A stretch of DNA of 64,000 nucleotides from Terriglobia bacterium (lineage in GTDB: Bacteria; Acidobacteriota; Terriglobia; 2-12-FULL-54-10), in the NCBI GenBank assembly GCA_963666975.2, contig CAXVYR010000003.1, positions 1 to 64,000 of the forward strand, given 5' to 3'. The translations under genes and the position numbers were made by a program. Shown in pieces: positions 12,199 through 64,000 of the stretch (position 1 is its first letter; each line of letters begins with the position of its first letter). A model generated the notes under the pieces. That model was given only the letters and a program-made list of their open reading frames with translations, was not told the origin of the DNA and did not search any database.

Positions 12199-12265
12199 AG
12201 GTCATCAACAATAGCGGAGCGCAATACGGGTGCTTCCCAAAATAGCTTATGAGGAGAATAGGGTT

Positions 12266-21596: not shown

Positions 21597-21625
21597 GATC
21601 GGCCCGATCTGGGAAAGTACAAGAG

Positions 21626-21667
21626 GACTCCGCAGTTGCGGTTATTCCTGCCGCTGCGGAGTCTTTG
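21626..21667 (+). terminator. Stem-loop after the first receptor (possible terminator)
   Basis: 10-bp inverted repeat GACTCCGCAG/CTGCGGAGTC followed by only TTT. Confidence 0.45.
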
Positions 21668-37732: not shown

Positions 37733-37886
37733 TCCCTCCCTACTCTCCATACAAAACCACAAGGGAGAACTCCGCGCGGAGAGTCCGTTGCGATTGTGTG
37801 GTTAGTCCCACTCACACTCGGCGTCACGTTTGATCTGCATGATCTGATCGGCAAAGCGGCGGTGGTATTTCTCTGCCGTCATCGCC

Positions 37887-46094: not shown

Positions 46095-49000
46095 ATGGGC
46101 TGCAATCAAGGATTTTTCCAAGGGTGGAGAGTTCTCAGGTTGCCGGAAGGTAAAACGGCCTCAGGAGCGGCGTTGAGAGGATCTTGTTTAGGGGCTTTGC
46201 TGGGCGTTCTGTTGTTTGCGATGGCACCCCTCGTTTGGGGGCAACTGGCGACCGGCTCTATTTCCGGCACGGTGGAGGACCCCACGGGGGCGGTCACGCC
46301 CGGGGTGCAGATCACGGTCCGCAACGTGGAAACCGGGATTACCCGGACGGTCGAGACCGGGCCGGCCGGCCGCTATCTGGTCACGAACCTGGCTCCTGGC
46401 AGTTATGCGGTAGAAGCGCAACTGACCGGCTTCCAGACCGAGGTGCGCCAAGGAATCACCCTCACAATAGGCCGGGAAGCCGTGATCGATCTCACCCTGA
46501 GCGTGGGACAGGTGCAAGAGCAGGTGGTGGTGACGGCGGAGGCCCCCTTGGTGGATACCACCAGCTCGGCCGTGTCGGGCCTGGTGGATCAGCAGCAAGT
46601 CCAGGGCTTGCCGCTGAACGGGCGCAGCCTGACGCAATTGACCACCTTGCAACCCGGGGTGCTTCTCTATCGGTCTAGGAGCACATGCACCGGCGTGGGA
46701 GAGAATATTATCATCAATGGAGCCCGTGCCCGGCAGATCAACTTTCTGTTGAACGGGACCAGTACCCTGAACTTTTTTGGCAAGTCCCCGGGCGGAATTT
46801 CGGGCCACCAGTTGGGCGTGGAAGGGGTCCGGGAGTTCACCGTGCTGAGCAGCAGCTACAGCGCTGAGTTCGGGCGCAGCGCCGGCGGGGTGGTCAACGC
46901 GGTTACCAAGTCGGGGACCAATACCCTGCATGGTTCTGTGTTTGATTACTTGCGGAACGACAATCTGGACGCGGCGCAGTGGGAGGACAACACGTTTAAC
47001 GACGGGGTCCAGCCGCCATTCGTGCGGAACCAGTTTGGGGCCAGCGTGGGCGGTCCCATCCGGCGCGACCAAACGTTTTTCTTCGCTACCGCGGAGTTTT
47101 TGCGGGAACGACTCGGCCAAACGTTGACTGACCGTTTCCCGACCGCGAACTCCCGGGCGGGCATTCTGCCGGACGGGAGCACCATCGAGGTGGCCGAGTC
47201 AATCAAACCGTATCTGGCTTTGCTACCGGTCCCGGACGATCGGTTTGATTTGGGCGATGGGTATGGGCGCCACGTAGCCTCCCTCACGCGGCCCACGGAT
47301 CAGAGCTATGTCAACTTCAGAATCGACCACCATTACTCCGATTCGCAATCCCTGTTTGGCAGCTATGTACTTGACGATTCGGACCGATTCTCGCCGCGCG
47401 CCGACGAACTCACGGCGCAATCGAATCCTTACCGCAATCAATACGCGACGCTGCAATGGGACAGCATCCTCTCCCCGACCATGCTCAACACGGCGCACGT
47501 TGGGTTCAATCGCTCCGAGGCCAATGACATCCCGACCTGTGAGGATTCTTTGCGGGCGCTCAACTTCATTCCCGGCACTGAGTTTTGTTCCCGCGGGGGG
47601 ATTACAGGCACGGGGGGCTTCTTCGGGCCCAGGGTTTTTATCCTCAACTCGTTCCAGTACTCCGATACGCTTTCCTGGACGCGAGGGATGCACTCCATCA
47701 AGCTCGGCGCTCGCTACGAACGCCATCAGGTCAACGGGACGGGTGGCATCTTTCCCGGCGGATGGATGGTCATGGCACCCGGTATTGAGAGGGAAATGAG
47801 GGGGCTGGTGAGCTTTTTTCAGGCTCCCCGGCCCGACGTGGATATAAATCGGGGGTTGAGGCAGAACTTCTATGCTTTCTTCGTGAACAACTCCATGCGG
47901 CTGATGCCCAATCTGACGGTGAACCTGGGCCTGCGTTACGAATTCATCACCCCCCCCACCGAGGTGAATGGGAAGTTGTCCAACCTGGACTCGGTGACTT
48001 CGCCGGAAGTGCGCATAGGAGAACCCTACTTCGAAAACCCGTCGCTGTGGAACTTCAGTCCTCGAGTGGGGATTGCGTGGGCTCCCGGAGGAAGCCAGAA
48101 CACCTCCGTTCGGGCCGGCTTTGGGATCTATTATGATCAACTGCTCCACCATACCTGGCTCGATGGACCCTTTCTGGCGCCCCCCTTCTATAGCGAAGCC
48201 CGTGTCTCTTCGGATCGCTCTTTTGCGCCTGGCAGCTTTCAGGTTCCCTTCCCCAACGCCTTCGATCTGTTTCTGGCGAACGACCCACGGGTAAGAACCG
48301 GGGGGTACCTGTTCTTCATTCAAGGGAATCCCCCACAGCCGTACACGCTCCAGTACAACTTCATGGTGCAACATCAACTGCCGGGACAATTGGTGGTGCA
48401 GGCAGCCTATGTGGGTACCGGGGGACGCAAATTGCCGCGCCTGATAGACAACACGGCTACTCCAACCACCCTCTCCGATGGCAGGCTCTTCTTTCCGGAA
48501 GATTCCGTCCGTCGGAACCCCAATTTTTCCGAGATACGCGCGAAGCAGTTTGATACGGTCAGCTCCTACAACGCGCTGCAGTTGGCGGCCCGGCGGCGGT
48601 TTGCGCGGGGGGCCGGCTTCCAGTTGTCTTACACCTGGTCCAAATCGATTGACATGATGTCGGATTTCCATGGCGCGGGCGATATCATTAACGATACGTT
48701 TTTCGGCACGTTGCCGGAATTGCCCGCATTCGACAAGGGGCGTTCGGCCTTTGATCGCCGGCATAATTTTGTCGGCAACTTTGCCGTGGACCTTCCGTTC
48801 GCGAGGAACCTGGAGGGGGCAGCGGCAAAACTGTTGGATGGTTGGCAGGTGCAGAGCATCCTGACGCTGCAAAGCGGCCTGTCGACGACGGCATTGCTTG
48901 ACACCAGGCGGCTTGGCTCGGGGTATACCCGCACCCGGTCCACCCGGGTTGGGGTGCGGCCGGACCTCGCCCCTGGGTTCACCGCTGAGAGTGTGGTGCT

Positions 49001-49355
49001 GGGAACGCCGAGCGAAAGCAACGATCCCCAGCATCGTTACCTGAACACCGCCGGGTTTGCCTTGCCTGCAGCAGGGTTCTTGGGGACTTTGGGACGCAAC
49101 ATCATCGATGGCCCGGGCCTCGCAACCTTTGACTTTTCCTTGATTAAGAGCACCGCGATCACGGAGAGGGTCAATCTGGAGTTTCGCACCGAGTTCTTCA
49201 ACCTGTTCAACCGGCCCAATTATTCTTCTCCCGCACAGACCGTGTTTAGAGGGGAACAAGACGGGACGGGCATACTGGACGGCAATTTCAGCACCATCAC
49301 CACTACCGTCAGCAGCGCCCGGCAAATCCAGTTGGCGCTGAAGCTCACGTTCTGA
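46095..49355 (+). CDS. TonB-dependent receptor (Oar-like)
   Basis: RBS GAGGAGG; LPLNGRS, SAEFGR, TKSGTN, RNQFGA; C-terminal RQIQLALKLTF. Confidence 0.92.
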   Translation: MGCNQGFFQGWRVLRLPEGKTASGAALRGSCLGALLGVLLFAMAPLVWGQLATGSISGTVEDPTGAVTPGVQITVRNVETGITRTVETGPAGRYLVTNLAPGSYAVEAQLTGFQTEVRQGITLTIGREAVIDLTLSVGQVQEQVVVTAEAPLVDTTSSAVSGLVDQQQVQGLPLNGRSLTQLTTLQPGVLLYRSRSTCTGVGENIIINGARARQINFLLNGTSTLNFFGKSPGGISGHQLGVEGVREFTVLSSSYSAEFGRSAGGVVNAVTKSGTNTLHGSVFDYLRNDNLDAAQWEDNTFNDGVQPPFVRNQFGASVGGPIRRDQTFFFATAEFLRERLGQTLTDRFPTANSRAGILPDGSTIEVAESIKPYLALLPVPDDRFDLGDGYGRHVASLTRPTDQSYVNFRIDHHYSDSQSLFGSYVLDDSDRFSPRADELTAQSNPYRNQYATLQWDSILSPTMLNTAHVGFNRSEANDIPTCEDSLRALNFIPGTEFCSRGGITGTGGFFGPRVFILNSFQYSDTLSWTRGMHSIKLGARYERHQVNGTGGIFPGGWMVMAPGIEREMRGLVSFFQAPRPDVDINRGLRQNFYAFFVNNSMRLMPNLTVNLGLRYEFITPPTEVNGKLSNLDSVTSPEVRIGEPYFENPSLWNFSPRVGIAWAPGGSQNTSVRAGFGIYYDQLLHHTWLDGPFLAPPFYSEARVSSDRSFAPGSFQVPFPNAFDLFLANDPRVRTGGYLFFIQGNPPQPYTLQYNFMVQHQLPGQLVVQAAYVGTGGRKLPRLIDNTATPTTLSDGRLFFPEDSVRRNPNFSEIRAKQFDTVSSYNALQLAARRRFARGAGFQLSYTWSKSIDMMSDFHGAGDIINDTFFGTLPELPAFDKGRSAFDRRHNFVGNFAVDLPFARNLEGAAAKLLDGWQVQSILTLQSGLSTTALLDTRRLGSGYTRTRSTRVGVRPDLAPGFTAESVVLGTPSESNDPQHRYLNTAGFALPAAGFLGTLGRNIIDGPGLATFDFSLIKSTAITERVNLEFRTEFFNLFNRPNYSSPAQTVFRGEQDGTGILDGNFSTITTTVSSARQIQLALKLTF

Positions 49356-49410
49356 GGGTGAGCCACCGATAACTTGACAGAATTTCAAAATCCAAGGGAG
49401 AGATCTTGCA

Positions 49411-50895
49411 ATGCGAGCCATGATTGTCTCCTCGGCATTGCCGGGGGTAGTTTTCGTTCTGTTGATTGCAGTTGCACAACCAACCTTGCAAGGGCAGCAG
49501 ATCACCTATAGGCCAGGGCAATATCCGGCACCCCGTTATCCCCAAGCACTCAAAAACCCCATGGTCGAGGATTTGATGCCTATCGCCCGGCAAATTGTGA
49601 AACGACCGGATAGCGGTCAGATGTTCTATCCCGGTTATGACATCAAACCGGGTGAAAGAGTTTTGATTGCCGTGGCACGGCATTTTAATCCCGTTGTTTT
49701 GGAAGCCATTACCCGCGCCATCCGGGAAGCGGGAGCCAAAGTGGATGTAATGATGGGCAGCGACGCCTATTTGCCCGGCGGGGATGGGGCCACCGAATGG
49801 GAGTACTTCACTTTCATGAAGGCTATCATGAGTGCGCAGGCAGGTGGTATCCCGCAAGAGACCATCATTGCCATGACTCTGGCGGGAAAATACGACCTGG
49901 CCATTTCGGGCATGGGAGGAGGGATTCCTCCCCATCCCCGCGATAAGATGCGCTGGGCTTATATTCCCTGGGATTTGGCGGATATGTTTTACGTTCACGG
50001 AGCTGGCATACCGGCTGACCTATTGAAGTTCATTGACAGCAAGGCCTGGGAATCCCTCTCCAGTGCTGTACAGATCCATGCGACGGATCCGGAAGGCACC
50101 GACATTACCTGGTCGCCGAAAGGCGCTGACTGGCAGGTTCCCGGAAGGCATAATCCCGGGCATCTGTCCTCTCATCCTGGGCGATCTGGAGCTACCGGTG
50201 TGCTGGCAGGCACCTGGAACCACGTAGGACCCTTTCCCCACATCCGCGTTTCCTTCAACAATGATCGCATGGAAGGCATCGAAGGTGGGGGAAGCTACGG
50301 GCAAAAGTGGCGGGCCATTCGGGGTGAGTGGAAAAACGTGAGTGTGCCTACCAAGCCAGGTGCGGGTCTCTTTACCTGGTTGCAGGAGGCCTCGGTCGGA
50401 ACAAACCCAAAATCTCTGCGACCGAAGGCCGCTTTGGACATTGCGATGGGAAACATCTGGGAGAGGACCCGTTCGGGAGTCATGCATTGGGGAATTGGCG
50501 GGGGACACAGCGAGGAAACCGGGATGGCTACGACATCAAACAACTTCGCACTGGCTAACCCAACCCTCGGGGATTCACCATTGACAGAATTCTACGAGGC
50601 ACACCCGGACACACCGACCGGCCACGTCCACATCCACAACTACTTCATCACCATGGAGCTCACCAATGCCGATGGGAGCAAGACTACCTTGATCCACAAG
50701 GGACGCCTCACCGCTCTGGATGATCCACAGGTGCGGCAGGAGGCAGCCAAGTATGGCGACCCGGATAAGCTCCTGCAAGAAAACTGGATTCCGGCTATTC
50801 CCGGCATTAACATACCGGGAGACTATCAGAAAGATTACGCTGGCGACCCGGCGGCATGGATCCGCAAGGACTTAGCGACTAACTGGAAATACTGA
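49411..50895 (+). CDS. Secreted M29-peptidase/NicX-like metalloprotein, subfamily A copy 1
   Basis: Signal peptide; TDPEGTDITW, IEGG, EASVGTNPK, ERTRSGVMHWGIG, GHVHIH. Confidence 0.6.
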   Translation: MRAMIVSSALPGVVFVLLIAVAQPTLQGQQITYRPGQYPAPRYPQALKNPMVEDLMPIARQIVKRPDSGQMFYPGYDIKPGERVLIAVARHFNPVVLEAITRAIREAGAKVDVMMGSDAYLPGGDGATEWEYFTFMKAIMSAQAGGIPQETIIAMTLAGKYDLAISGMGGGIPPHPRDKMRWAYIPWDLADMFYVHGAGIPADLLKFIDSKAWESLSSAVQIHATDPEGTDITWSPKGADWQVPGRHNPGHLSSHPGRSGATGVLAGTWNHVGPFPHIRVSFNNDRMEGIEGGGSYGQKWRAIRGEWKNVSVPTKPGAGLFTWLQEASVGTNPKSLRPKAALDIAMGNIWERTRSGVMHWGIGGGHSEETGMATTSNNFALANPTLGDSPLTEFYEAHPDTPTGHVHIHNYFITMELTNADGSKTTLIHKGRLTALDDPQVRQEAAKYGDPDKLLQENWIPAIPGINIPGDYQKDYAGDPAAWIRKDLATNWKY

Positions 50896-50957
50896 AGGCA
50901 GCAAGGCTTCGGGAAAGGGACCGTCAAGAAGAAGAAATGGAAAAAGGAGGAAAAGCC

Positions 50958-52409
50958 ATGGTAGCCGGTGCCAAGGGGATGTTTCTGTTCTTTTTGATTG
51001 CGCTTGCCGGACCGCTTCTATACTCGCAACAGAGAACGTACCAGCCGGGGGAATATCCGACTCCCCGCTACCCGAAGATTCCGAAGAATCCCACCATAGA
51101 GGACCTGATGCCGACAGCCCGAGCCATTATAAGGCGAGGTGACATCGGGGCCATGTTCTATCCCGGTTATGCCATTAAACCGGGCGAGAGGGCTCTGATG
51201 GCGGTGCCCCGAGATTTTGACCCGCTGGTGATCGAGGCCCTCGGGCGCGCCATCCGAGAAGCGGGAGCTAAGCTCGACTTGATCCTGGGAAACGAACCGT
51301 ATCTGCCCGGCGGAGACGGAGCGACGGAGTTTGAGTACTTCACCCAGATGAAAGACATCATGGCCGCGCAAGCGGGCGGCATCGAACAAGCTACTATCGT
51401 GGCGATGACTTTGGCTGGCAAATATGACATCGCCATTTCCGGCATGGGGGGAGGGATACCAGCCCATCCCCGTGACAAGATGCGCTGGGCATACATGCCC
51501 TGGGATATGGTCGACCAGTTTCTTGTGCACGGAGCGAGCATCCCGCCGGAGTTGCTGAAGTTTATTGACGATGTGGCCTGGAATACGCTGATTCAGGCAG
51601 TCCATATCCACGCCACGGATCCAGAGGGCACAGATATCAGTTGGCCTGCCACGCCGGAGGACTGGGAGAGCCCTGGGCGCCATACGCCGGGCCATTTCAT
51701 GTCTCATCCATTGATTGATCTGCAGGGGATACCGGGCGCTACCGGAGTGGTTGCAGGGACATGGAACCACACGGGGCCTCACCCCCACATCCGGCTTTCC
51801 TTCAAGAATGATCGGCTTGAGGGGATCGAAGGCGGGGGTGCCTATGGACAGAAGTGGCGTGGTATTCGAGATCAGTGGAAGGATGTGAAATGGTCTGGAA
51901 AGAAAGGTTCGGGACTGTTTAATTATTTGTTTGAAGCCTCGATCGGGACGAATCCGAAATCGGCCCGTCCCAAGGGAGCCCTGGAGCGCGCCATGGGCAA
52001 TATCTGGGAAAGGACCCGTGCGGGGGTTATCCACTGGGGGATCGGCGGTGATTCTAAAATGATCGACTTCTTTCCGAGCGATTCGGGCGATCCCGCTGTC
52101 GCCAAGTACTTCCAAGAGAATCCGGATACACCAACTGGCCACGTCCATGTGCACAACTACTTTCTGACGATGGTGCTCACCAACGCCGACGGAAGCAAGA
52201 CCACCTTCGTCGACAAAGGCCGTTTGACGGCGCTGGACGATCCCAGGGTTCGCCAAGAGGCCGCCAAGTATGGGGACCCGGATGAGCTGCTGGGGGAGAC
52301 CTGGATTCCGGCCATTCCCGGGATTAACGTGCCCGGAGATTACCGCAAGGACTATGCCGGCGATCCGGCCGCCTATGTCCGCAAGAACCTGGCGAACTGG
52401 CCATACTAA
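50958..52409 (+). CDS. Secreted M29/NicX-like metalloprotein, subfamily A copy 2
   Basis: Clear paralog of 49411-50895; RBS AGGAGG. Confidence 0.6.
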   Translation: MVAGAKGMFLFFLIALAGPLLYSQQRTYQPGEYPTPRYPKIPKNPTIEDLMPTARAIIRRGDIGAMFYPGYAIKPGERALMAVPRDFDPLVIEALGRAIREAGAKLDLILGNEPYLPGGDGATEFEYFTQMKDIMAAQAGGIEQATIVAMTLAGKYDIAISGMGGGIPAHPRDKMRWAYMPWDMVDQFLVHGASIPPELLKFIDDVAWNTLIQAVHIHATDPEGTDISWPATPEDWESPGRHTPGHFMSHPLIDLQGIPGATGVVAGTWNHTGPHPHIRLSFKNDRLEGIEGGGAYGQKWRGIRDQWKDVKWSGKKGSGLFNYLFEASIGTNPKSARPKGALERAMGNIWERTRAGVIHWGIGGDSKMIDFFPSDSGDPAVAKYFQENPDTPTGHVHVHNYFLTMVLTNADGSKTTFVDKGRLTALDDPRVRQEAAKYGDPDELLGETWIPAIPGINVPGDYRKDYAGDPAAYVRKNLANWPY

Positions 52410-52444
52410 GTGCAGTATCGGTTCTTCGCGGCAAACCGTTCCGG

Positions 52445-52590
52445 CCTAAATGTTCACGTATTCATCCAGTGGGGTCCGTCCAGACAAGAGGGTCTGGGAG
52501 GCGATCCGGCAGGCCTGGGCCGAAAAGGGTGCGGAGATCCAAGCAGGCACCTACGAGTACATCGTAGAGGATTTCTCGTTTGACGTTTTG
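52445..52590 (+). pseudogene. Internally deleted relic of a subfamily B gene
   Basis: VHVFIQWG and RVWEAIRQAWAEKG (N-terminal) fused directly to IQAGTYEYIVEDFS (C-terminal). Confidence 0.75.
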
Positions 52591-52724
52591 TGGGAGCGCT
52601 CGGTTCTGGCCGCCTGTGAAGAGCTTGCGACCGATAGCGAATGAAATGTCGTATAGCAAGGTGGTGAGACCATCGGAATTTGTTTTTGCTACGGTGACGG
52701 TCAATGGGAAGAAAAGAGGAAACT

Positions 52725-54383
52725 ATGATTTGCCGTGATTCCTCCGATAGGAAATTTTTTCATCCGACGCGGTCTTGGTGGACGGGCTTGGTCACGTGCC
52801 TCGTCATGAGTTTGTTGAGCTTTTCCTGTTCCCGGCAGCATGAGGAGGCCATGACCGGGGCAGCCTACCCGCAACCGCGATACCCCCGGTATCTGGTCAA
52901 CCCCGATATGGACGACCTCCTGATTGCAGCGCGAGTTGCGGTCAGCCAGCCAACCGGGCGTGCACCCTTAGGGAAAATGCAGTCTGGGCAGAATATTTAC
53001 GTTTTCATCCAGTGGGGCCAGGACATGAGAGTCTGGGAGGCGGTCAAGCAGGCCTGGGACGAGAAAGGTGTGGAGGCCCATGCGATTGGAATCTGGGATG
53101 TCATGGGAATGACGAAGGAAGACTATGACAAAAGGATGGAGCTGAACATAGTCCACGGCAATGAGGGCTGGAAGGAGGCAGGGATATTCCTCCGCCGAGA
53201 CTACAGACAGTATTTTTCGGAAGAAATCCAGAACCAGTTTGGTGACCCGATTGTTGACTTCCAGATAATCGACCCCTATCTGATCGCTTATCTCGACAAG
53301 CATCCGGAGATCACGAATATTTATGCCGGCATTGGTGGCCGCAATTTCTTTGTGAGTTGGCTTGGGCCGAAGCATGCCGATAAGTTCCAGGGGAACTGGA
53401 TTTACTACCGGCCGGTCGATCTGCTCTCCAAGGCGGCGGAATTTCCTGCCGATGTCTGGAATCTGGTAGATGAGAAAACGTTGCGCCCGATCCCCTTCGT
53501 TTCCGAGGTGACCTTCCAGGACCCCGAGGGAACGAACCTGCACTGGACCTTGACTCCGGAACAGTCCAAGCTGTGGAGCCTTAATAGCGGAATATCCAAT
53601 CACATTTACATTTATCCCAGTCCCTTACGTTCGACAATGCAGGAAGGAGGAGTGCTGGCAGCACACGCTAACCATACCGGCATTTTCCCGACCATGACTG
53701 TTAACCTCGATCGTTACGGGGCTATCGAACGGATCGAGGGTGGCGGGCGTGTGGCAGAAATGTTCAATATACTGCTGAATCATCTCGCATTCCAGGATGT
53801 GAAGTTTCCGAAAGCGCCCGCGCCGGGTTACTGGTTTTTCCGACAGGATGGCTTTGCGACCAATCCGAAATTCATTCGCAGCATACCGGCGCTGATCGAA
53901 GGGGGGGCGTTTTTGCCGAATGCCTCCGAGCGGAACCGGGCAGGAATCCAGCACCTGGCGTTTGCCTACAATTCCACAGATCCCGAGGATCTGGCCTATG
54001 CAGAGCAGAGAGGAATTCCGTTAGGAGATGGCCAGCATAACTTTCACATGCACGTTTATTTTCCGACTGTGCAGTGGAAGCTGCGGGACACGGGAGAGTG
54101 GCTGACGGTAGCGGAAAAAGGGTATGTGAGGATGTTTGATGACCCGGAGGTACGTGCGCTGGCGGCGCGTTACGGAGATCCTGACTTGATCTTCCGGTAT
54201 GAATGGATCCCATCTGTTCCAGGGATCAATATGCCGGGAAACTACGAGAACGATTTCGCCCGCGATCCCTGGGGCTGGATTATGTCGGAATGGCAACGGA
54301 TCCAAGAAGGAACCTACGAGTACTTCGTAGAGGAATACTCGCTGGACGAGCCGGTGGCAGCGCTTCATTCTGGCCGCCCGTAA
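52725..54383 (+). CDS. M29/NicX-like putative lipoprotein, subfamily B copy 1
   Basis: Lipobox-like LLSFSC; QDPEGTNL, DGFATNPK, ERNRAGIQHLAF, HNFHMH. Confidence 0.6.
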   Translation: MICRDSSDRKFFHPTRSWWTGLVTCLVMSLLSFSCSRQHEEAMTGAAYPQPRYPRYLVNPDMDDLLIAARVAVSQPTGRAPLGKMQSGQNIYVFIQWGQDMRVWEAVKQAWDEKGVEAHAIGIWDVMGMTKEDYDKRMELNIVHGNEGWKEAGIFLRRDYRQYFSEEIQNQFGDPIVDFQIIDPYLIAYLDKHPEITNIYAGIGGRNFFVSWLGPKHADKFQGNWIYYRPVDLLSKAAEFPADVWNLVDEKTLRPIPFVSEVTFQDPEGTNLHWTLTPEQSKLWSLNSGISNHIYIYPSPLRSTMQEGGVLAAHANHTGIFPTMTVNLDRYGAIERIEGGGRVAEMFNILLNHLAFQDVKFPKAPAPGYWFFRQDGFATNPKFIRSIPALIEGGAFLPNASERNRAGIQHLAFAYNSTDPEDLAYAEQRGIPLGDGQHNFHMHVYFPTVQWKLRDTGEWLTVAEKGYVRMFDDPEVRALAARYGDPDLIFRYEWIPSVPGINMPGNYENDFARDPWGWIMSEWQRIQEGTYEYFVEEYSLDEPVAALHSGRP

Positions 54384-54417
54384 GAAGAGGATGCGGATTG
54401 TCAAAGCTTCGATCCCT

Positions 54418-54569
54418 CTAGAGCATTTCTCCAGTAGGTGTAGAGTTCTGGCAGCCGCGTAGCGTCAGCGTACTCGCTGGCCATTGGGTCGCCAGAGCCT
54501 GCCCCGAGCCAGCCGATGAGGATGGTGGCGCTACATTCCTCCTATACACTTTCGGGAGAACTGCTCTAG
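54418..54569. mobile_element. 148-bp MITE inserted at CTAG
   Basis: 28-bp imperfect IR (23/28 identical) starting CTAGAGCA; the paralogous spacer at 56299-56302 is the empty site. Confidence 0.85.
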
Positions 54570-54605
54570 TTTGCGTGAGTTTCAACGGAAAGAGAGGACA
54601 GGACA

Positions 54606-56264: not shown

Positions 56265-56338
56265 GAAGAGGAAGCGGATTGTCAAAGACTCGGTCCCTCT
56301 AGTTTGCGTGAGTGTCAACGGAAAGAGAGGACAGGACA

Positions 56339-58006
56339 ATGAGTATCGGTGATTGTTCACACAAAGCATTTTCTAATTCGGAGCGATTGCGCTGGATAGG
56401 AGTGGTCACGTGCCTCGTCATGAGTTTGTTAAGCCTTTCCTGTTCCCGGCAGCAAGAGGAGGCCATGACCGGGGCAGCCTACCCGCAACCGCGATACCCC
56501 CGGTATCTGGTCAACCCGAGTGCGGAAGAACTTCTAGGCGCTGCACGTTTTGCAGTCCGCCAGCCGGTCGGTCGCGCGCCGTTGGGGAAAATGCAATCTG
56601 GCCAAACCGCGCACGTGCTGATCCAGTGGGGTCAGGACATGCAGGTCTGGGAGGCGGTCCGGCAAGCCTGGGCGGAAAAGGGTGTGGAGGCTCATGCGAT
56701 TGGAATCTGGGATGTCATGGGAATTACGAAGGAAGAGTATGACCGGAGAATGGCAAGCAATGTGGTTCTCGGAAACGAGGGATGGAAGGAAGCGGGCATT
56801 TTCTGGACAGGAGATTACAGAGAATACTTTCCAGAGGATATTCAAAACGAGTTTGGCAATCCGATTGTCGATTTTGCGATCGTTGATCCCTATTTAAACC
56901 AGTATCTGGACGAGCATCCGGAGGTCCAGAACCTGTATGGCGCCATTGGCGGAGGTGGTTATGCCAGATGGCTTACGGAGGCACATAGGGAAAAGTATCA
57001 GGGGACTTGGATCTACTATCGCCCGGTTGATCTGGTGAGCAAAGCGGCCGAATTCCCGACGGATGTCTGGAATCTGGTCGAGGAGAAAACGTTGCGCCCG
57101 CGCCCCTTTGTTTCCGAGGTGACCCTCCAAGACCCGGAGGGGACGAATCTGCACTGGATGCTGAATCACGGACAGGCTCAATTGTGGAGCGCTCGTGGTG
57201 GAGCTGTTGGTGACAATGCCTCCAATCACATTACCATTTATCCCAACCCATTGCATTCGACATTCCGCGACGGCGGCGTGATCGCTTCCCACTCGAACCA
57301 TACTGGGATCTATCCTACTATGAAGGTTACCCTCAATTCGTATGGAGCAGTCAATAACATCGAGGGGGGGGGGCGGACGGCTGAGATGTTCCGGTATTTA
57401 CTAAACCATCCCAACTTCCAGGATATCAAGTTCCCGAAAGCCTATGTGCCGGGTTACTGGTTTTTGCGACAAGATGGCTTCGCGACCAACCCAAAGTACG
57501 TCCGCAGCTTGCCGGCGCTGATTGAAGGAGAATCGTTCTTGCCGAATGCCTCGGAGCGGAATCGGGCTGGGGTGCAGCACTTGGCCTTTGCCTACAGTTC
57601 CGATGATGCCGAGGACTTGGCGTATGCGAAGCAGAAAGGCGTTCCTCTGGGAAATAGTCACAACTTCCACATGCACATTTATTTTCCGACGGTGCAGTGG
57701 AGACTGCGCGACACGGGAGAATGGATCACGATATCGGAAAAAGGGTATGTGACCATGTTTGACGACCCCGAGGTCCGTGCGCTGGCCGCGCGTTACGGAG
57801 ATCCTGACTTGATCTTCCGGTATGAATGGATTCCGTCTATTCCAGGGATTAATGTCGAGGGGAACTACGAGAAAGACTTCGTCCCGGATCCCTGGGGCTG
57901 GATGATGGCGGAATGGCAACGGATCCAAGAAGGAACCTACGAGTACTTTGTAGAGGATTACTCGCAGGACGAGCCGGTGGCAGCGCTCCATTCCGGCCGC
58001 CCGTAA
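56339..58006 (+). CDS. M29/NicX-like putative lipoprotein, subfamily B copy 3
   Basis: Paralog (most divergent); LLSLSC; HNFHMH. Confidence 0.6.
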   Translation: MSIGDCSHKAFSNSERLRWIGVVTCLVMSLLSLSCSRQQEEAMTGAAYPQPRYPRYLVNPSAEELLGAARFAVRQPVGRAPLGKMQSGQTAHVLIQWGQDMQVWEAVRQAWAEKGVEAHAIGIWDVMGITKEEYDRRMASNVVLGNEGWKEAGIFWTGDYREYFPEDIQNEFGNPIVDFAIVDPYLNQYLDEHPEVQNLYGAIGGGGYARWLTEAHREKYQGTWIYYRPVDLVSKAAEFPTDVWNLVEEKTLRPRPFVSEVTLQDPEGTNLHWMLNHGQAQLWSARGGAVGDNASNHITIYPNPLHSTFRDGGVIASHSNHTGIYPTMKVTLNSYGAVNNIEGGGRTAEMFRYLLNHPNFQDIKFPKAYVPGYWFLRQDGFATNPKYVRSLPALIEGESFLPNASERNRAGVQHLAFAYSSDDAEDLAYAKQKGVPLGNSHNFHMHIYFPTVQWRLRDTGEWITISEKGYVTMFDDPEVRALAARYGDPDLIFRYEWIPSIPGINVEGNYEKDFVPDPWGWMMAEWQRIQEGTYEYFVEDYSQDEPVAALHSGRP

Positions 58007-58107
58007 ACGACCCGGGGACGCATAGCAAAATGGAATGTAGGGAAGTGGCGGCAGACATCGAGCTTTTATTCATACGGTGACAGGCAACGGAAAGAAAGGA
58101 CAAAACT

Positions 58108-59766
58108 ATGATTTACCGTGATTCCACGCCCAGAGGATTTTTGTGTTCGACACGATCCCTCCCGATGAGCGTCATCGTATGCTTCGTTGTTAGTTTGATT
58201 AGCTTTTCCTGTTCCCGGCAGCAAGAGGAGGCCATGACCGGGGCAGCCTACCCACAACCGCGCTACCCCCGGTATCTGGTCAACCCCGATTCGGACGACC
58301 TCTTGAGTGCTGCACGCTTTGCGGTCCGCCAGCCGACCGGGCGTTCGCCCTTGGGGAAAATGCAGTCTGGGCAAGTCGTTCATGTGCTCATCCAGTGGGG
58401 GCAAGATATGCAAGTCTGGGAGGCGGTCCGGCAGGCCTGGGCCGAGAAAGATGTGGAGGCTCAAGCAATTGGGGTTTGGGAGGTCATGGGCATCACGAAG
58501 GAAGAGTATGACAAAAGGATGGAGCCGAACATAGTCTACGGCAATGAGGCATGGAAGGAGGCGGGAGTTTTCCTCCGCAGAGACTACAAACAGTTTTTTC
58601 CGGAAGATATCCAGAAACAGTTTGGCGACCCGATTGTTGATTTCCAGATAATTGACCCCTATCTGATCGCTTATCTCGACAAGCACCCTGAGGTCCAGAA
58701 TATTTATGCCGGCAATGGTGGCGGCGTTTTTTTTGTGAGGTGGCTTGGGGAAAAGCACGCCGACAAGTTCCAGGGGAACTGGATTTTCTACCGGTCGGTC
58801 GATCTGCTTTCCAAGGCGGCGGAATTTCCCGCCGACGTCTGGAATCTGGTGGACGAGAAAACGTTGCGCCCGATTCCCTTCGTTTCTGAGGTCACGTTCC
58901 AAGACCCCGAGGGGACGAATCTGGAATGGGCCGTAACTCCGGAACAGGCCCAGTTCTGGAGCAAGAGTGCCGGGAATTCCAATCACATCTACATTTATCC
59001 CAGTCCTCTGCACTCGACTTTCCAGGAAGGAGGGGTGCTGGCAGCACACGCCAACCATACCGGCATTTTCCCGACCATGACCGTTAACCTCGATCGTTAC
59101 GGGGCTATCGAAAGGATCGAGGGAGGTGGGCGTGTGGCAGAAATGTTCAACATCCTGCTGAATAACCCGGCATTCCATGATGTGCAGTTTCCGAATTCAC
59201 CAGCGCCGGGTTACTGGTTCTTCCGGCAAGATGGGTTCGCGACCAACCCGAAATTCCTTCGTAGCATACCGGCGCTGATTGAAGGTGAGCCGTTTTTGCC
59301 GAATGCCTCCGAGCGCAACCGGGCAGGCATCCAGCACCTGGCTTTTGCCTACGATTCCGTTGATCCCGAGGACCTATCCTATGCAAAGCAGCGAGGGATT
59401 CCATTGGGGGAGGGGCAGCATAATTTTCACATGCACGTTTATTTCCCCACCGCGCGGTGGAAGCTGCGGGACACGGGAGAGTGGATCACGATATCGGAAA
59501 AAGGGTATGTCACGATGTTTGACGACCCGGAGGTCCGCGCGCTGGCGGCGCGTTACGGAGGTCCGGATTTACTCTTCCGGTATGAGTGGAATCCATCGAT
59601 TCCTGGGGTCAATGTAGGAGGAGAGTACGAAAAGGATTTTGCCCAGGACCCCTGGAACTGGATTATGGCGGAATGGGAACAGATCCAAGCAGGCACCTAC
59701 GAGTACTTCGTAGAGGATTACTCGCTTGACAATCCTGTGGCTGCGCTCGATGCTGGCCGCCCGTAA
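58108..59766 (+). CDS. M29/NicX-like putative lipoprotein, subfamily B copy 4
   Basis: Paralog; LISFSC; HNFHMH. Confidence 0.6.
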   Translation: MIYRDSTPRGFLCSTRSLPMSVIVCFVVSLISFSCSRQQEEAMTGAAYPQPRYPRYLVNPDSDDLLSAARFAVRQPTGRSPLGKMQSGQVVHVLIQWGQDMQVWEAVRQAWAEKDVEAQAIGVWEVMGITKEEYDKRMEPNIVYGNEAWKEAGVFLRRDYKQFFPEDIQKQFGDPIVDFQIIDPYLIAYLDKHPEVQNIYAGNGGGVFFVRWLGEKHADKFQGNWIFYRSVDLLSKAAEFPADVWNLVDEKTLRPIPFVSEVTFQDPEGTNLEWAVTPEQAQFWSKSAGNSNHIYIYPSPLHSTFQEGGVLAAHANHTGIFPTMTVNLDRYGAIERIEGGGRVAEMFNILLNNPAFHDVQFPNSPAPGYWFFRQDGFATNPKFLRSIPALIEGEPFLPNASERNRAGIQHLAFAYDSVDPEDLSYAKQRGIPLGEGQHNFHMHVYFPTARWKLRDTGEWITISEKGYVTMFDDPEVRALAARYGGPDLLFRYEWNPSIPGVNVGGEYEKDFAQDPWNWIMAEWEQIQAGTYEYFVEDYSLDNPVAALDAGRP

Positions 59767-59890
59767 CGCAAGGAGACTGAGGGGCCAAACGAAATGTGCA
59801 GAACCGGGTCCTCCCGGATGATATCCATGCAGGGAGCGGTGGCCAGTGCAGTGGTTCCCCTCTGCGGCTGCACAGCGAGGATGTGAGGTT

Positions 59891-60427
59891 GTGACGAGAG
59901 CAACACTTCTTGCGGGGGCGCTTGTTTTTGCTGTTGCGGTTGGAGTGCCGGCGGCCTCGCTGGCCCAAAGCAGCAGGTTCACGCTAGGAAGCGGATCGGG
60001 GGGCCCCGGTCATAGCGTAGGATTGCCGATCTACCTGACTCTCCCCAAAGACAGCGAGTTCGAGCGCATCATTGCAATCGTCGAACCCACTGCTGCCCTG
60101 GCGTATGACCGGGTGGAAGCAATGGAGGAGAACAGCGTTGTGCTCCGCGCGAAAGAGTCCGCTCCCGGAACGGACGGGAAGAGGCGTGTGGAAATCACGC
60201 TGGAAGGGGGGCAAGGAAAGCCGTTGCAGACCGGGCTGGCGGGCATGATTTATTTCACCATTGACCAAGATGCACGGCCGCAGATGGCCTCTCTGCCCGT
60301 TTCGGAGGTGAAAGGTTTCCCGAAGGGAAGTCGCGTGGCAGAAAATTTACGCGGCGATCAAGGGAGTGTCACGGTCTACGAGCCTGGGACAGAACCTGTT
60401 ATGACCTGCTTTTTTTTCACGCACTGA
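59891..60427 (+). CDS. Secreted cohesin-like beta-sandwich protein ending in CFFFTH
   Basis: Signal peptide (ASLA-Q); GSGSGGPGHSVGLPIYL and G.AGMIYFTI fit a cohesin-like strand pattern; start uncertain. Confidence 0.55.
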   Translation: MTRATLLAGALVFAVAVGVPAASLAQSSRFTLGSGSGGPGHSVGLPIYLTLPKDSEFERIIAIVEPTAALAYDRVEAMEENSVVLRAKESAPGTDGKRRVEITLEGGQGKPLQTGLAGMIYFTIDQDARPQMASLPVSEVKGFPKGSRVAENLRGDQGSVTVYEPGTEPVMTCFFFTH

Positions 60428-60614
60428 GGAAGTCTCAGCACGCCTTCTCAGGCTCGCCTCCAGAAAAAGTTGGGCAGGCACGCCCCGCTTCTCCGTGCTG
60501 GGTTGCGGGTGGCCGGTTTGTTGAAAGCCGGCCTGTGACCACTCAACAGAGGGGGCAGTCCGCCAAGGTAGTCGTAACAAACAATTTCTGTCTTCAGCCA
60601 GACAACAGGATTAC

Positions 60615-63600
60615 ATGAACCGCATTGTGCTTCATTGGTTTCTGCTTAGAGTCGTCGGCCGGCGCGTCATGCTGGGCTACGGTGTAGTCGCGCTTTTGTC
60701 GGTGGCGATTCTGGCGTCCCTGTACATGGCTTCGCGTTACGGTCTGGAAGCTTACGTTGACGACCAGCTCGGCCGGATTCCGTGGGAGATCTCCGTCATC
60801 CAGCGCGGCGAGACGTATCGCTATGCTGAACTTCAGGAAAAGTATCGGCAGCGCGCGGGTGTGCGCGAGGTGCAGGGGCTGGGCTTTCTGCGCGTGCGCA
60901 ACCTGTCGCCGGTGAGATTGGAGGCCGGGAACCAAGCCGTGCCCGTCCGCTGGATTGTGTTTGTTTCCGCCTCCAGCGAGGGATTATTGCCGCCGGAGCT
61001 GCGGAGAGGCCTCGAAGAGAACGGCGGTAGCGGCTCCTCGCCGCGGGTGATCGAAGCCGCGCTGGTGGGCGCTCCCGGAACAGCCGCAGGCGGCGGCAGC
61101 CTGGGAAGCATCCGCGCGGGCAGCGCGTTGCGCGTTTCCGTCGCTCTGGATCCGGAGGGGTTTGCCACGGTCCCGGACGATCATTCGCACGGTCCGGGGG
61201 CAATCGAACAGGACTCCTTACGCGTGCTGTTCGAAGGGGAACTGGCGAGCAACCCCCTGCAAATCGACCGGCAGGAGTTCAACCGGTGGATGTTGCGGGA
61301 GGTGGGGTCGTTGACGTACCTTCCCGAGGAATCCATCGTGCTGCCCGTGCCGATGGAGGATTTCCAGCGACTGGCCTCCCAGTTTCACGACCTGTTTCTG
61401 ACCTCCGAGGGAGTGCACGGAGGGGGAGCGGCGCCCACCTACGTGCCGGAAATGACCCACTTGATTGGCGTGGACCGGGAGCGGTTTGTTTCCACCTGGG
61501 ATCTGTACGGCTCGCTCCGGCGACTGGAGCCGGAGGTACGAGATATCTTCCGGGAAGCGCAGCGGCTGACGCCGTTTTCCTGGGCGAACAGCGATCTGGT
61601 TCTTTTGCTGTCCCGCATGAATGCGATTGCGCGGCTGATTAGCCTGGCGACGTTGCTGGTCTCGATTCCGCTGTTATGGATGGGGTGGGTGCTGGCGAGG
61701 TGGCTGGGGCGGCTGCTGGTTCTGGACCAGCGGCGGCTGATCGGCCTGGCCCTCATCCGGGGCGTTGCCAGCCGCGATGCGGGAAGGGCTGTTCTGTTGG
61801 CCCTTGGTTTAGGAGGCGCCATCGGTGGCTTGGCCGGCCTGCTTCTGGGCACCGGGCTTCCCATCCTGGGGTACTCTCTGGCGGGCCGCGCTGTGCCTCC
61901 GCAGATCGTATTGCTGGAGGCGGTGGTGTACTTCGGGGCTTTTCTGATCGTCGGGGTGGCTCTGGCGGTGCTGTCGGGACGGGATGTGCTCCGGTTTGTG
62001 CGCCGCCTGACGCCGCGGGAAGCCATCTCCAGGGCCGAGGGCGAAGCGGCGGAGAAGGCGGCCCCTGCGTTGTCGCGGTACGACGTGGGAAGTTTCCTGG
62101 TGGCGCTGGCGCTGGGAAGCTACAAGATCGGGTCGTGGATTGCCGGCCAGTCGCCCTTGCTTGACGCTTCGCGGGATCTTTTGCCCAACGGGGTGGTGCA
62201 GGCCCTGGTTGTCCTGGAGGGGGTCTTGAACTTTGTCGCTGTTCCGCTGTTGCTGTACGGGCTGGCGGGCTTGCTGCTCTGGAGAGTCGCCCTGGTCCAG
62301 AAAGTGATCGGCAAACTGACGGCTCCGCTGGTCGGGAGTCTGGATTGGTTTGTCAGCCAGTACATGGCGCTACGGCGCCAGCGGGTGGCGCAGCTTCTGT
62401 TCGTGGCGGGGATGGCGACGGCCCTGAGCCTGATGCCGCAGGTTGCCGGCGACGGTTTTTATGACCGGGTTGTCCGGGGGGTCAGAACGTCGCTGGGATC
62501 GGAGATGCTTTTGGAGTTCGACCTCCAGGCGCTGGGCAGCGATCTGGTAGGCCCGGCCGCCCTGGGCCGTTACCAGCAGGCGCTGCAGCCGCAAGTGAAC
62601 CGGTTGCGCGAGATGATCGCAAGCGATGACGATGTCGCGACCGTGGAAGTGATCCAGCAATTTCTGATTCCCAGCATCTACATACCGGGCCAGAGCGGCC
62701 TGCTGCTGAACCTGATCGAGGACCCCGGCCATTACCTGGCGATGGTGCAATACGAGGACGGCCTGGGGCTGACGCGGAGCTTCCCGGATGCGATCGCCTC
62801 GCTGGAGGACGGGAAGGTGCTGGGGTCGCTGGGGCTGTTCCGGCTGCGCGCCATCCAGCTGGAAAAACCGGTGATTCTCGGCTACGACTCCCGGGGCGAG
62901 GAAATCCTCTCCCAATTTGACGATATCGTGGCCTTCCTGCCGGGCCAGCCGGCGAGAGCCATTGAGCAGCGGGAGGGGTTCGCGACGGCTGAGATCGACT
63001 ACCTGAATTACCTGCTGACGGCAGATGCCCGCATGGTTTTCTCTCAGGAGCAGTTGTTGCAGTCACCCAATTTGCAGGAGTTGACCGTCGTGCCGTCCCG
63101 GGCTGTTTTCCTGATTACCACCCGGAACGGGGTTGCCGGCGCCGAGCTGGCCGCTCGTCTGAGCACGCGGCTTCCGTGGAAGGCCGAACAGGCCCGGTGG
63201 GAAGCGGCGGAACGCGAGCGCCTGGGAAAAGACATGTTCGTGTCGCTGGCGATGGAAAACATGCGGGTCTACATGATCGGGAGCCTGCTGCTGGCATGTG
63301 CCAGCGTGGGGGCCATCGCGTTGTCGAACTTTGTGGCAGACCGGCGCACCTTCGGGCTGCTGCGGCTGCGGGGGGTGGCGCCGTCACTGCTGCTGCGGAT
63401 TACCCTGTCGTTCTTCCTCCTGCCCGTTATGGCGGGCGTGCTGGTGGGCATCGCCGTGGGGGCGGTCTCGGGCTTCGGCTTGTCACAGGCCATCTGGGAT
63501 CTGCCGCGTGTGCACGGGATCGGCGACTTTCTGTCCAACCAGCTGATCTTCTCGGCAACAGCTGGGGTGATCACCGTAACGCTGATCGCCATCTTTGCCG

Positions 63601-63668
63601 CCTTGGCATGGGGCATTGGGGTCTGGCTGTTCCGGAGGACGGCGCGAGAGGCGATTCGGGAGGGGTAA
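60615..63668 (+). CDS. Large FtsX/MacB-like ABC permease (two permease repeats)
   Basis: QRRLIGLALIRGV and RRTFGLLRLRGV repeats, multiple TM helices, two large extracytoplasmic loops. Confidence 0.8.
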   Translation: MNRIVLHWFLLRVVGRRVMLGYGVVALLSVAILASLYMASRYGLEAYVDDQLGRIPWEISVIQRGETYRYAELQEKYRQRAGVREVQGLGFLRVRNLSPVRLEAGNQAVPVRWIVFVSASSEGLLPPELRRGLEENGGSGSSPRVIEAALVGAPGTAAGGGSLGSIRAGSALRVSVALDPEGFATVPDDHSHGPGAIEQDSLRVLFEGELASNPLQIDRQEFNRWMLREVGSLTYLPEESIVLPVPMEDFQRLASQFHDLFLTSEGVHGGGAAPTYVPEMTHLIGVDRERFVSTWDLYGSLRRLEPEVRDIFREAQRLTPFSWANSDLVLLLSRMNAIARLISLATLLVSIPLLWMGWVLARWLGRLLVLDQRRLIGLALIRGVASRDAGRAVLLALGLGGAIGGLAGLLLGTGLPILGYSLAGRAVPPQIVLLEAVVYFGAFLIVGVALAVLSGRDVLRFVRRLTPREAISRAEGEAAEKAAPALSRYDVGSFLVALALGSYKIGSWIAGQSPLLDASRDLLPNGVVQALVVLEGVLNFVAVPLLLYGLAGLLLWRVALVQKVIGKLTAPLVGSLDWFVSQYMALRRQRVAQLLFVAGMATALSLMPQVAGDGFYDRVVRGVRTSLGSEMLLEFDLQALGSDLVGPAALGRYQQALQPQVNRLREMIASDDDVATVEVIQQFLIPSIYIPGQSGLLLNLIEDPGHYLAMVQYEDGLGLTRSFPDAIASLEDGKVLGSLGLFRLRAIQLEKPVILGYDSRGEEILSQFDDIVAFLPGQPARAIEQREGFATAEIDYLNYLLTADARMVFSQEQLLQSPNLQELTVVPSRAVFLITTRNGVAGAELAARLSTRLPWKAEQARWEAAERERLGKDMFVSLAMENMRVYMIGSLLLACASVGAIALSNFVADRRTFGLLRLRGVAPSLLLRITLSFFLLPVMAGVLVGIAVGAVSGFGLSQAIWDLPRVHGIGDFLSNQLIFSATAGVITVTLIAIFAALAWGIGVWLFRRTAREAIREG

Positions 63669-63688
63669 AGAGAGGGGTAAAGAAAAGA

Positions 63689-64000
63689 ATGGTGATGAGG
63701 AGTCTGTTCCGCCGGTCGGGGATGGAGTGTTCTATCCGGGGGTTGGTGAAGCAATACGAAGTTGGTGACAGTATCTATCCGGTCTTAAAAGGGATCAACT
63801 GCGATATGCAGCCCGGGCAAGTGGCCATCATCCAGGGTCCCAGCGGATGCGGCAAGACTACTTTTCTAAATTTGCTGGGAGGCATCGACGAGCCGGACGG
63901 CGGCCAGATCCGAATCGGCGGGGTTAATCTGGAAAGGGTTGAGTCCGACTTGGCCCGTTACCGGCTGTTGGACGTGGGGTTCGTGTTCCAGGCCTTCAAT
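63689..64000 (+). CDS. LolD/MacB-type ABC ATP-binding protein, partial (not in ORF track)
   Basis: Manual translation: VLKGINCD..IQGPSGCGKTTFLNLLGGID..VGFVFQAFN. Confidence 0.9.
   Translation, partial: MVMRSLFRRSGMECSIRGLVKQYEVGDSIYPVLKGINCDMQPGQVAIIQGPSGCGKTTFLNLLGGIDEPDGGQIRIGGVNLERVESDLARYRLLDVGFVFQAFN

Follow-up and report, generated by a model that had tools for sequence, protein, structure and literature searches.

A conserved envelope gene module of a Terriglobia bacterium joins a TonB-dependent receptor and predicted NicX/M29-fold enzymes to a YbbAP-TesA-like ABC unit

FtsEX, together with EnvC, PcsB or RipC, is reportedly an ATP-binding cassette (ABC) machine of type VII that acts on a periplasmic hydrolase through an extracytoplasmic domain. 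A close analogue of the locus described here is the YbbAP-TesA system of Escherichia coli, published in 2025, which is an ABC transporter of type VII that has ten transmembrane (TM) segments and two periplasmic domains, located between TM1-2 and TM7-8 of YbbP, with one docked TesA hydrolase between them and the tesA gene adjacent (PMC12646458). At the outer membrane, nutrient loci are found in which a receptor of the Oar subclass of TonB-dependent transporters, as this subclass is defined in PMC6434023, stands beside arrays of exported hydrolases. In the present study, a block of ten genes was analysed in the window, that is, the whole 64,000-nucleotide (nt) stretch of DNA at the start of contig C3 (CAXVYR010000003.1) in the 4.23-Mb, 98.9% complete genome of a Terriglobia bacterium (G000; GCA_963666975.2); other genomes, contigs and loci are referred to by G, C and L numbers. 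Since the initial observation was confirmed and the components co-occur elsewhere, the block is a real, conserved envelope module of two linked units. The first would consist of an Oar-class TonB-dependent transporter followed by putatively Sec-exported A-type members (A1 and A2) of a NicX/M29-fold metalloenzyme family, and the second of B-type members (B1-B4), a secreted cohesin-fold protein ending in CFF[F/Y]xH and a type VII ABC machine. The most fitting description is that of a unit of receptor and periplasmic enzymes linked to an ABC-enzyme unit that resembles YbbAP-TesA but employs a new enzyme family, with a cohesin-like accessory protein; it combines known kinds and is not a categorically new system. 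The preliminary description, made from the sequence alone, had matched it to no described pathway, a point corrected here by YbbAP-TesA as a described analogue (PMC12646458).

The resemblance of the second unit to YbbAP-TesA concerns several features. The permease is single and, judged by hydropathy only, has ten TM segments with large periplasmic loops at about residues 41-337 (about 297 amino acids (aa), after TM1) and 611-884 (about 274 aa, after TM7). Its ATPase is of the LolD/MacB/YbbA kind, and a periplasmic enzyme is encoded beside the transporter and evolves together with the permease, as seen in the gene order and the enzyme clade described below. The FtsX domain (PF02687) was matched by five of the seven aligned permease homologs (31-81% identical to the window permease; best E 3.8e-12) and also by the homolog of a metagenome locus, L144, and the neighbours of the permease in the ESM Atlas were FtsX clusters (score 0.99); NCBIfam gave nothing for the seven homologs. 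The best NCBIfam models for the full ATPase were LolD (8.8e-56), DevA, MacB, YbbA (3.8e-51) and FtsE (to 1e-50), all below their equivalog cut-offs, and the protein belongs with the LolD/MacB/FtsE/YbbA group. These matches, along with the hydropathy, favour the earlier assignment of an FtsX/MacB-type permease with its ATPase, the window permease itself having no FtsX match in Pfam. In contrast to YbbAP-TesA, whose partner enzyme is an SGNH thioesterase, the unit has a 500-aa partner of predicted NicX/M29 fold and a permease with about 200 aa more, it occurs in the company of a TonB-dependent receptor and a cohesin-like protein, and its complex is a predicted one. FtsEX likewise is a type VII ABC machine with a periplasmic hydrolase as target, but FtsX has four TM segments and forms a dimer, and its partners are coiled-coil peptidoglycan-hydrolase regulators of cell division, none of which is indicated here. 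The MacAB-TolC tripartite pump has an adjacent membrane-fusion protein and outer-membrane factor, whereas no HlyD- or OEP-type gene is present in the block or its flanks. As for the receptor-plus-hydrolase loci, they share the CarboxypepD_reg, plug and barrel domains and the array design (compare positions 10270-25332 of the window), but here the enzyme family is uncharacterised and the locus continues into a type VII ABC unit.

The association of enzyme, permease and ATPase recurred in other genomes. A search of 41 genomes of the class detected permease homologs in five, namely the window genome and four of the 13 others of the same taxonomic family, and in none of the 27 genomes of other families; in all five, an enzyme-family gene lies directly beside the permease and ATPase genes. 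The window genome has ten family genes, six of them in this block; two more (C3:780256-783415) stand beside a second permease (51% identical) and its ATPase, while the remaining two are located near another Oar-class receptor gene and beside an exported amidohydrolase gene, respectively. In G001, a genome of the same genus, the order is B, B, cohesin-like CFFFTH gene, permease, ATPase, followed about 3.5 kb farther on by a receptor 91% identical to that of the window. The first of these two B genes (L096:15510-17237) is split into two open reading frames (ORFs; 212 and 321 aa) and is probably broken, while the window genome has four intact copies.

In metagenomes, 38 permease loci were obtained (30-58% identical to the window permease), 19 of which extend 1.5 kb or more upstream beyond the start of the permease gene. 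Of these informative loci, 15 have a B-like gene immediately upstream of the permease, two have it immediately downstream and the last two are without one; two additional loci read permease-ATPase-B. These counts include near-duplicate loci of one lineage (L129/L130, L132/L135, L136/L139 and L122/L123/L125), the metagenome loci were located via the permease and the genome loci via the enzyme family, and the relatives are not independent of one another. With this scope, B, permease and ATPase genes occur together in every permease-bearing genome and in most informative metagenome loci; a lack of co-occurrence in other genomes, named at the outset as grounds for refutation, was not observed. Two tandem permease genes (B, B, permease, permease, ATPase or B, B, permease, ATPase, permease) were observed in L098, L124 and L152, which suggests hetero-assemblies or specialisation.

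In a FastTree phylogeny of 114 family proteins, all 21 permease-adjacent members fell into a single clade of 29 tips with a support of 0.96, referred to as the B clade. Of the eight remaining tips, seven belong to the same arrays in permease loci, and the eighth, L010, comes from a locus cut by the contig end with no permease visible. A GTYEY-like C-terminal tail is carried by 18 of the 29 B-clade proteins and by none of the 85 others.

The receptor matched OMP_b-brl_4 (3e-171), CarboxypepD_reg (2e-19) and Plug (3e-5) in Pfam and has the CarboxypepD_reg N-terminal extension, plug and 22-strand barrel domain of the Oar subclass. About 37 high-scoring pairs of TonB-dependent transporter paralogs, the window receptor among them, were counted in the 4.2-Mb genome, with mutual identities of 30-40%, so that a receptor-enzyme adjacency would be expected by chance in about 1% of cases. 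In 7 of the 79 genome loci of the enzyme family, a co-oriented receptor gene precedes a family gene at a distance of 27-415 nt, which far exceeds this expectation from the receptor density of the window genome. The adjacency was also seen in several metagenome loci, for example L137 and L151, and several metagenome loci repeat the window order receptor-B-permease-ATPase. Both this pairing and that of the cohesin-like gene with the enzymes, described below, are found outside the window genome. In the metagenome locus L144, the receptor and B-like genes are separated by a gene for a 594-aa FAD_binding_2 flavoprotein (3058-4842), which possibly hints at redox chemistry for this variant. The third family locus of the window genome (L002, on contig C4) carries a 242-aa Cys-rich ORF without a Pfam match (L002:8496-9224) between the family gene and an Oar-class receptor gene.

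The coordinates are collected in Table 1. All ten ORFs of the block are present, co-oriented and tightly packed from 46095 to C3:64417, with intergenic gaps, from 5' to 3', of 55, 41, 294, 222, 47, 101, 79, 187 and 20 nt, which agrees with the original account of at least ten co-oriented genes over about 18 kb. For B3, an in-frame ATG nine codons downstream of the GTG is an alternative start. Promoter and terminator scans gave nothing decisive; the top promoter-like site (45871-45900) lies ahead of the receptor gene.

Table 1 Genes of the block, its boundaries and further CFFFTH genes of the same genome
Feature	Coordinates	Strand	Basis
IS481-like transposase gene (left boundary)	44551-45837	-	Pfam HTH_32/HTH_28/rve
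Oar-class TonB-dependent transporter, 1086 aa	46095-49355	+	Pfam
A1, exported NicX/M29-fold protein (predicted), 494 aa, type-I-like signal peptide	49411-50895	+	
A2, paralog of A1, 490 aa	50937-52409	+	
B1, 559 aa, signal ends LLSFSC, C-terminal GTYEYF tail	52704-54383	+	
B2, B-type paralog, 552 aa	54606-56264	+	
B3, B-type paralog, 564 aa counted from GTG	56312-58006	+	
B4, B-type paralog, 552 aa	58108-59766	+	
Secreted single-cohesin-fold protein, 193 aa, CFFFTH terminus	59846-60427	+	AF2 model, Foldseek
10-TM FtsX-type permease, 1017 aa	60615-63668	+	Hydropathy, homologs' Pfam, ESM Atlas
ABC ATPase, type VII kind, 242 aa	63689-64000, on to C3:64417 beyond the window	+	NCBIfam
Transposase gene (right boundary)	C3:65169-66674	+	
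Seven other CFFFTH genes of G000	C1:6564-7337, C3:409079-409756, C3:686687-687346, C3:767016-767789, C3:1065153-1065323, C4:1689683-1690294, C4:2142157-2142828		

A1 and A2 are 69% identical, B1-B4 are 73-84% identical among themselves, and A and B proteins share 29-32% identity. None of the six has a Pfam, NCBIfam or PDB sequence match. The Peptidase_M29 model (PF02073) was matched by none of them at E ≤ 0.01, nor by A1 or B1 at E ≤ 10, phmmer searches of the PDB with A1 and B1 gave nothing, and the family profile recovered from the PDB only a universal stress protein at E 0.78. The claim that no protein matches a characterised family with a known pathway was thus upheld in Pfam, NCBIfam and PDB sequence searches. 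Among 8000 candidates scored, 247 relatives were found at E ≤ 1e-3, all unnamed or "hypothetical"; a library of 1.84 billion representatives, clustered at 50% identity, contained 938 related clusters at E ≤ 1e-3 and 199 at 1e-30, and 401 stretches of one-genome-per-species contigs encode a relative. The hosts belong to Acidobacteriota, Chloroflexota, Deltaproteobacteria, Binatia, Actinomycetes and Bacillota.

The AlphaFold2 (AF2) model of A1 (predicted local distance difference test (pLDDT) 89.7, predicted template-modelling score 0.89) retrieved in Foldseek at E < 1e-3 only PepS, NicX, AmpS, AmpT and CgnE/CgnB. VIA-align scored NicX highest (23.5, with 313 residues aligned), followed by AmpT (14.9), PepS (14.8), AmpS (13.6), CgnE (11.9) and CgnB (10.7), the best unrelated chain reaching 7.6; the model has the two-domain AmpS/AmpT fold and the overall fold of NicX. 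The PF02073 search of the 41 genomes found no strong M29 gene, and ten M29 sequences from five Bacillota genomes served as the reference; hhalign aligned the family with them at E 3.7e-11 (97.2% probability, 317 columns). In this alignment, A1 residues E326, E351, H359, H407 and H409 fall on the M29 Glu, Asp (of FDEN), His, His and Asp, so that H409 stands where M29 has its terminal Asp ligand, a correspondence of profiles and not of coordinates. These positions correspond to those of the dinuclear site described for CgnB and aminopeptidases (PMC10070186). Outside the B clade, E326 (85 of 85), H359 (85 of 85) and H409 (84 of 85) are near-invariant. Model, Foldseek, VIA-align and hhalign together support the earlier fold call, and as judged by model and alignments the family forms a separate branch within the NicX/M29 fold, marked by a putative Glu/Glu/His/His/His site of its own. 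Weak GT4-like Pfam matches on the N-domain of three homologs were below the cut-off and were taken only as a sign of a Rossmann-like N-domain.

From peptidase M29 (AmpS, AmpT, PepS), the family differs in having no PF02073 match, in the replacement of the terminal Asp ligand by His and in extra N- and C-terminal elements. NicX, the 2,5-dihydroxypyridine 5,6-dioxygenase of Pseudomonas putida (PDB 7cn3, 7cup), is 13% identical to the family and binds Fe(II) through His265, Ser302, His318 and Asp320 (PMC7910607), a ligand set that differs from the Glu, Glu, His, His and His at the M29-equivalent positions of the family; the family equivalents of the NicX ligands, judged by spacing and not by residue superposition, would be E326, H359, H407 and H409. 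The family is also about 140 aa longer than NicX and, in this block, exported. CgnB and CgnE are cytoplasmic partners in crocagin biosynthesis, a pathway for a ribosomally synthesised and post-translationally modified peptide (RiPP), whereas no precursor-peptide or RiPP genes were seen here.

A1 and A2 have ordinary signal peptides. In B1-B4, the signal region, read by eye, ends in LLSFSC or LLSLSC. The lipobox motif is [LVI][ASTVI][GAS]C, and these ends are non-canonical. Ordinary signal peptides, without the Cys, are carried by the B-like proteins in G006, G007 and G003 and in the second module of G000. Of the lipid anchor assigned earlier to the B paralogs, the Cys after the signal region stands, whereas S-F-S-C and S-L-S-C are only lipobox-like and the Cys is absent elsewhere. 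By a crude criterion, a hydrophobic N-terminus preceding the conserved YPxPRYP motif, an exported member is encoded in 25 of the 79 genome loci, mostly in Acidobacteriota, while many members in Chloroflexota, Deltaproteobacteria, Actinomycetes and Bacillota have no signal peptide. The initial view of an exported family holds for all six window paralogs but not for the family as such, and on sequence grounds export is apparently a trait of lineage and not of family. The signal-less members of Bacillota and actinomycetes adjoin genes for NMT1/SsuA-type ABC importers, LysR or sigma-54 regulators, hydantoinase A/B, amidohydrolases, a phosphotriesterase-family protein and an FAD monooxygenase; these contexts point to catabolism of nitrogenous small molecules by the cytoplasmic relatives. 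In three loci from Bacillota and Streptomyces (L039:12549-13061, L047:11513-12091 and L053:11359-11862), a small ORF of 167-192 aa without a Pfam match lies closely 3' of the cytoplasmic family gene, in L039 with one NMT1-type gene in between.

The AF2 model of the cohesin-like protein (pLDDT 80.6) shows a cohesin-type sandwich at residues 44-177 (pLDDT above 88) and a tail with a pLDDT of about 55-64, the final 14 residues being of low confidence. Cohesin modules occupied the top ranks in Foldseek (best E 4e-9, TMt up to 0.74), and the initial cohesin-like call therefore stands. The start of the homologs maps to about 59891, within the annotated ORF. Cellulosome cohesin modules share the fold; unlike them, the window protein is a single module with an invariant CFF[F/Y]xH C-terminus and has no Pfam Cohesin match, and no dockerin (PF00404) was found in the 98.9%-complete genome. 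The exact CFFFTH-stop pattern occurs in eight copies in this genome, the paralogs being 21-28% identical and yet invariant in the end P-x(2-6)-[GAT]-CFFFTH. Three further CFFFTH genes adjoin exported amidohydrolase or amidase genes, and one precedes two HlyD-type genes and an AcrB-type gene of a resistance-nodulation-division efflux operon. There is no difference between the copies at C1 and C3:767016, which means that a part of C3 is duplicated in the 8.7-kb contig C1, and the copy at C3:1065153 is a 57-codon remnant. In its exact form, the motif was found in 12 of the 14 genomes of the taxonomic family and in none of 300 other genomes of the phylum, reversed-pattern controls giving 0. ORFs of about 200-240 aa ending in CFFFTH, CFFYMH, CFFYLH or CFFFSH adjoin family or permease genes in 6 of the 79 genome loci, in 6 of the 38 metagenome loci and in G001; homology to the window protein was seen for L122, L123 and L125 (32% identity), the only ones checked. 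The cohesin-like protein is a recurrent, non-obligatory companion of exported metalloenzymes. The string CFFFTH did not occur in the literature searched, which also yielded nothing relevant on cohesins or dockerins of Acidobacteria, and an invariant six-residue C-terminus on fast-evolving secreted proteins beside exported metallohydrolases is a puzzle of its own.

Sequencing runs from seven studies contain the stretch. Contigs at ≥99% identity from four metatranscriptome runs of two studies, one of which is labelled sponge metagenome, cover 26, 26, 20 and 13 of 30 bins and span the receptor, A, B, cohesin and ATPase genes. Given this presence in metatranscriptome libraries, natural populations probably make use of the module. 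The RNA-library contigs barely reach 60.9-62.8 kb, inside the permease gene, but from contigs silence of that part does not follow. In run X14, apparent "joints" from one B copy to another were set aside as expected from assembly across paralogs of 73-84% identity.

In the working model, which draws on analogy and sequence and whose chances we put a little below even, uptake is receptor-mediated, processing periplasmic, and the B enzyme the partner of the ABC machine. The substrate, for which a nitrogen-containing small molecule, a heterocyclic amide or a peptide-like compound is favoured, would cross the outer membrane via the receptor and be transformed in the periplasm by the A and B enzymes. 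The B enzyme would be to the ABC machine what TesA is to YbbAP, its dedicated partner in the periplasm, a type VII "mechanotransmission" role proposed because of the gene order, the clade structure and the topology. Cytoplasmic ATP hydrolysis would move the periplasmic domains, which would either offer the docked enzyme a substrate that is periplasmic or associated with the membrane, or gate the enzyme, while the ABC machine would carry no solute across the membrane; the cohesin-like protein would be an accessory binder of the exported metalloenzymes. Gene content, folds, conserved linkage, clade structure, conserved metal-site positions and presence in RNA libraries are observations, and what we infer is how the proteins associate physically, in which direction the flow goes, and the chemistry with its substrate; confidence that the gene linkage is functional is much higher than that in the model.

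Several points weigh against this model. The window permease has no Pfam match, FtsX included, even at E ≤ 10, and its family profile matched no PDB sequence, including YbbP (9GE6-8), MacB and LolC, so that YbbAP is resembled in topology and gene order, with homology not demonstrated beyond the FtsX domain. The first M29 Glu ligand has no aligned counterpart in the family in the hhalign comparison. The metal site is relaxed in the B clade, where position 326 is Gln in 14 of the 29 members (with an adjacent Asp in 12), E351 is kept in 18 and H359 in 23, and a member beside the permease in G003 (L101:15688-17289), a probable pseudoenzyme by its sequence, is without the ERxRxGxxH stretch and has Gly at the H409 position; because of this relaxation and degeneration, some B proteins may act in binding and not in catalysis. 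Most permease loci have no cohesin gene, and CFFFTH genes are also present in genomes in which the search detected no permease, for example G009, G012 and G013. The two units are separable; of the single envelope-spanning machine envisaged in the preliminary description, the linkage of the genes remains, but they form two sub-modules (receptor and A; B, cohesin and ABC), differently ordered in G001. Insertion sequence (IS) elements flank the block on both ends, the substrate guess rests on the contexts of cytoplasmic relatives and the neighbouring amidohydrolase arrays, and the RNA-library contigs may carry DNA and give no strand, ends or level.

Among the alternatives, that of a plain nutrient-scavenging locus without an enzyme-transporter complex survives best, though it is unlikely: the receptor would import a substrate, the paralogous periplasmic hydrolases would degrade it, and the FtsX-type ABC system would independently expel a toxic or useless product from the periplasm or outer leaflet, or protect the cell, in a MacB- or BceAB-like manner. 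Its precedent within the window is an analogous Amidohydro_3 array with two Oar-class receptors (10270-25332) and no ABC system, and it accords with the finding that none of the 79 genome loci of the family carries such a permease, most family-bearing genomes being without it, as well as with the flanks of the permease loci, which otherwise share nothing and vary freely. MacB-type exporters are also said in the review literature to act on periplasmic substrates. However, scavenging leaves unexplained the tie between the permease and a single monophyletic clade of enzymes that has a tail motif of its own, as well as the position of the enzyme gene, immediately ahead of permease and ATPase in 15 of the 19 informative loci, and no membrane-fusion or outer-membrane-factor gene is found in the block.

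The relaxed metal site of the B clade, together with its degenerate form in G003, would also suit exported members, at least of B type, that are non-catalytic ligand binders and serve as the extracytoplasmic recognition partner of the ABC system, an improbable reading. It would make them comparable to CgnB and CgnE, which share the fold, showed no aminopeptidase activity and bind peptide (PMC10070186), and the order partner-permease-ATPase resembles a binding-protein operon. On the other hand, the window proteins B1-B4 retain D226, E228, H251, H271, E351, H359, H407 and H409 and deviate from the site only at position 326, where they have Gln-Asp instead of Glu-Ala; A-type and cytoplasmic members keep the full residue set almost invariantly. 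Moreover, type VII ABC systems are not known to import solutes. The account of YbbAP-TesA is framed in the same way (PMC12646458).

Improbable to a slightly greater degree is a system for secretion or surface display, in which the Oar-class transporter would export the enzymes across the outer membrane and a Lol-like ABC machine would extract lipid-anchored B proteins or handle the CFF[F/Y]xH cohesin protein as a surface anchor. The precedent is Oar of Myxococcus, with the same CarboxypepD_reg N-terminal extension, which is required for PopC secretion (PMC6434023); the Cys directly after the signal region of B1-B4 would fit, as would the invariance and lineage restriction of the tail, which recall sorting tags. 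Against this stand the B-like proteins without a signal Cys listed above, the occurrence of CFFFTH genes in G009, G012 and G013 and their absence from G006, which has two permeases, and the nature of the tail, which has no transmembrane segment and marks one paralogous family rather than varied cargo. The ABC machine as an obligatory CFFFTH sorter was rejected because CFFFTH genes and permeases are distributed differently across the 14 genomes of this taxonomic family. That unrelated genes came together by chance through IS-mediated rearrangement in a plastic region is barely credible: the transposase genes on both sides, the further IS, integrase and conjugation-gene remnants in the window and the different gene order in G001 would agree with it, but these gene pairings are found again in independent lineages whose permeases are as little as 30% identical, and the co-occurrence data already contradict it.

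A bolder extension of the working model, itself distinctly unlikely, is that of a new class of type VII ABC "mechano-enzyme", in which cytoplasmic ATP hydrolysis would power or gate a periplasmic NicX-like metalloenzyme acting on a receptor-delivered substrate, while the CFF[F/Y]xH cohesin proteins would be an unrecognised family of periplasmic partners of exported metallohydrolases, their Cys...His tail capping the metal site as a trans-acting, ABC-released "cysteine switch" or delivering metal after Sec export. 

Should B and the permease indeed dock, the principle of YbbAP-TesA, known since 2025 from a single E. coli system only, would turn out to be general, with unrelated enzymes fitted to it and a link to TonB-dependent uptake as well. 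The block also defines an unannotated family spread over several phyla, with no Pfam or NCBIfam model, as a putative third functional branch of the NicX/M29 fold.

Genes for a phage-type integrase and a T2SSE-type ATPase occur in the surroundings of the block, at 36364-39574 and many other sites of the window, along with a TraG-like fragment and no fewer than eight transposase ORFs, and the region looks like a plastic, once-mobile island. DDE transposase genes at 6960-10001 lie just upstream of the locus at 10270-25332. This locus encodes a tandem array of four exported Amidohydro_3 paralogs of 637-648 aa and, after it, two TonB-dependent transporters of the Oar class (1052 and 1081 aa), and so repeats the design of a paralog array with a receptor.

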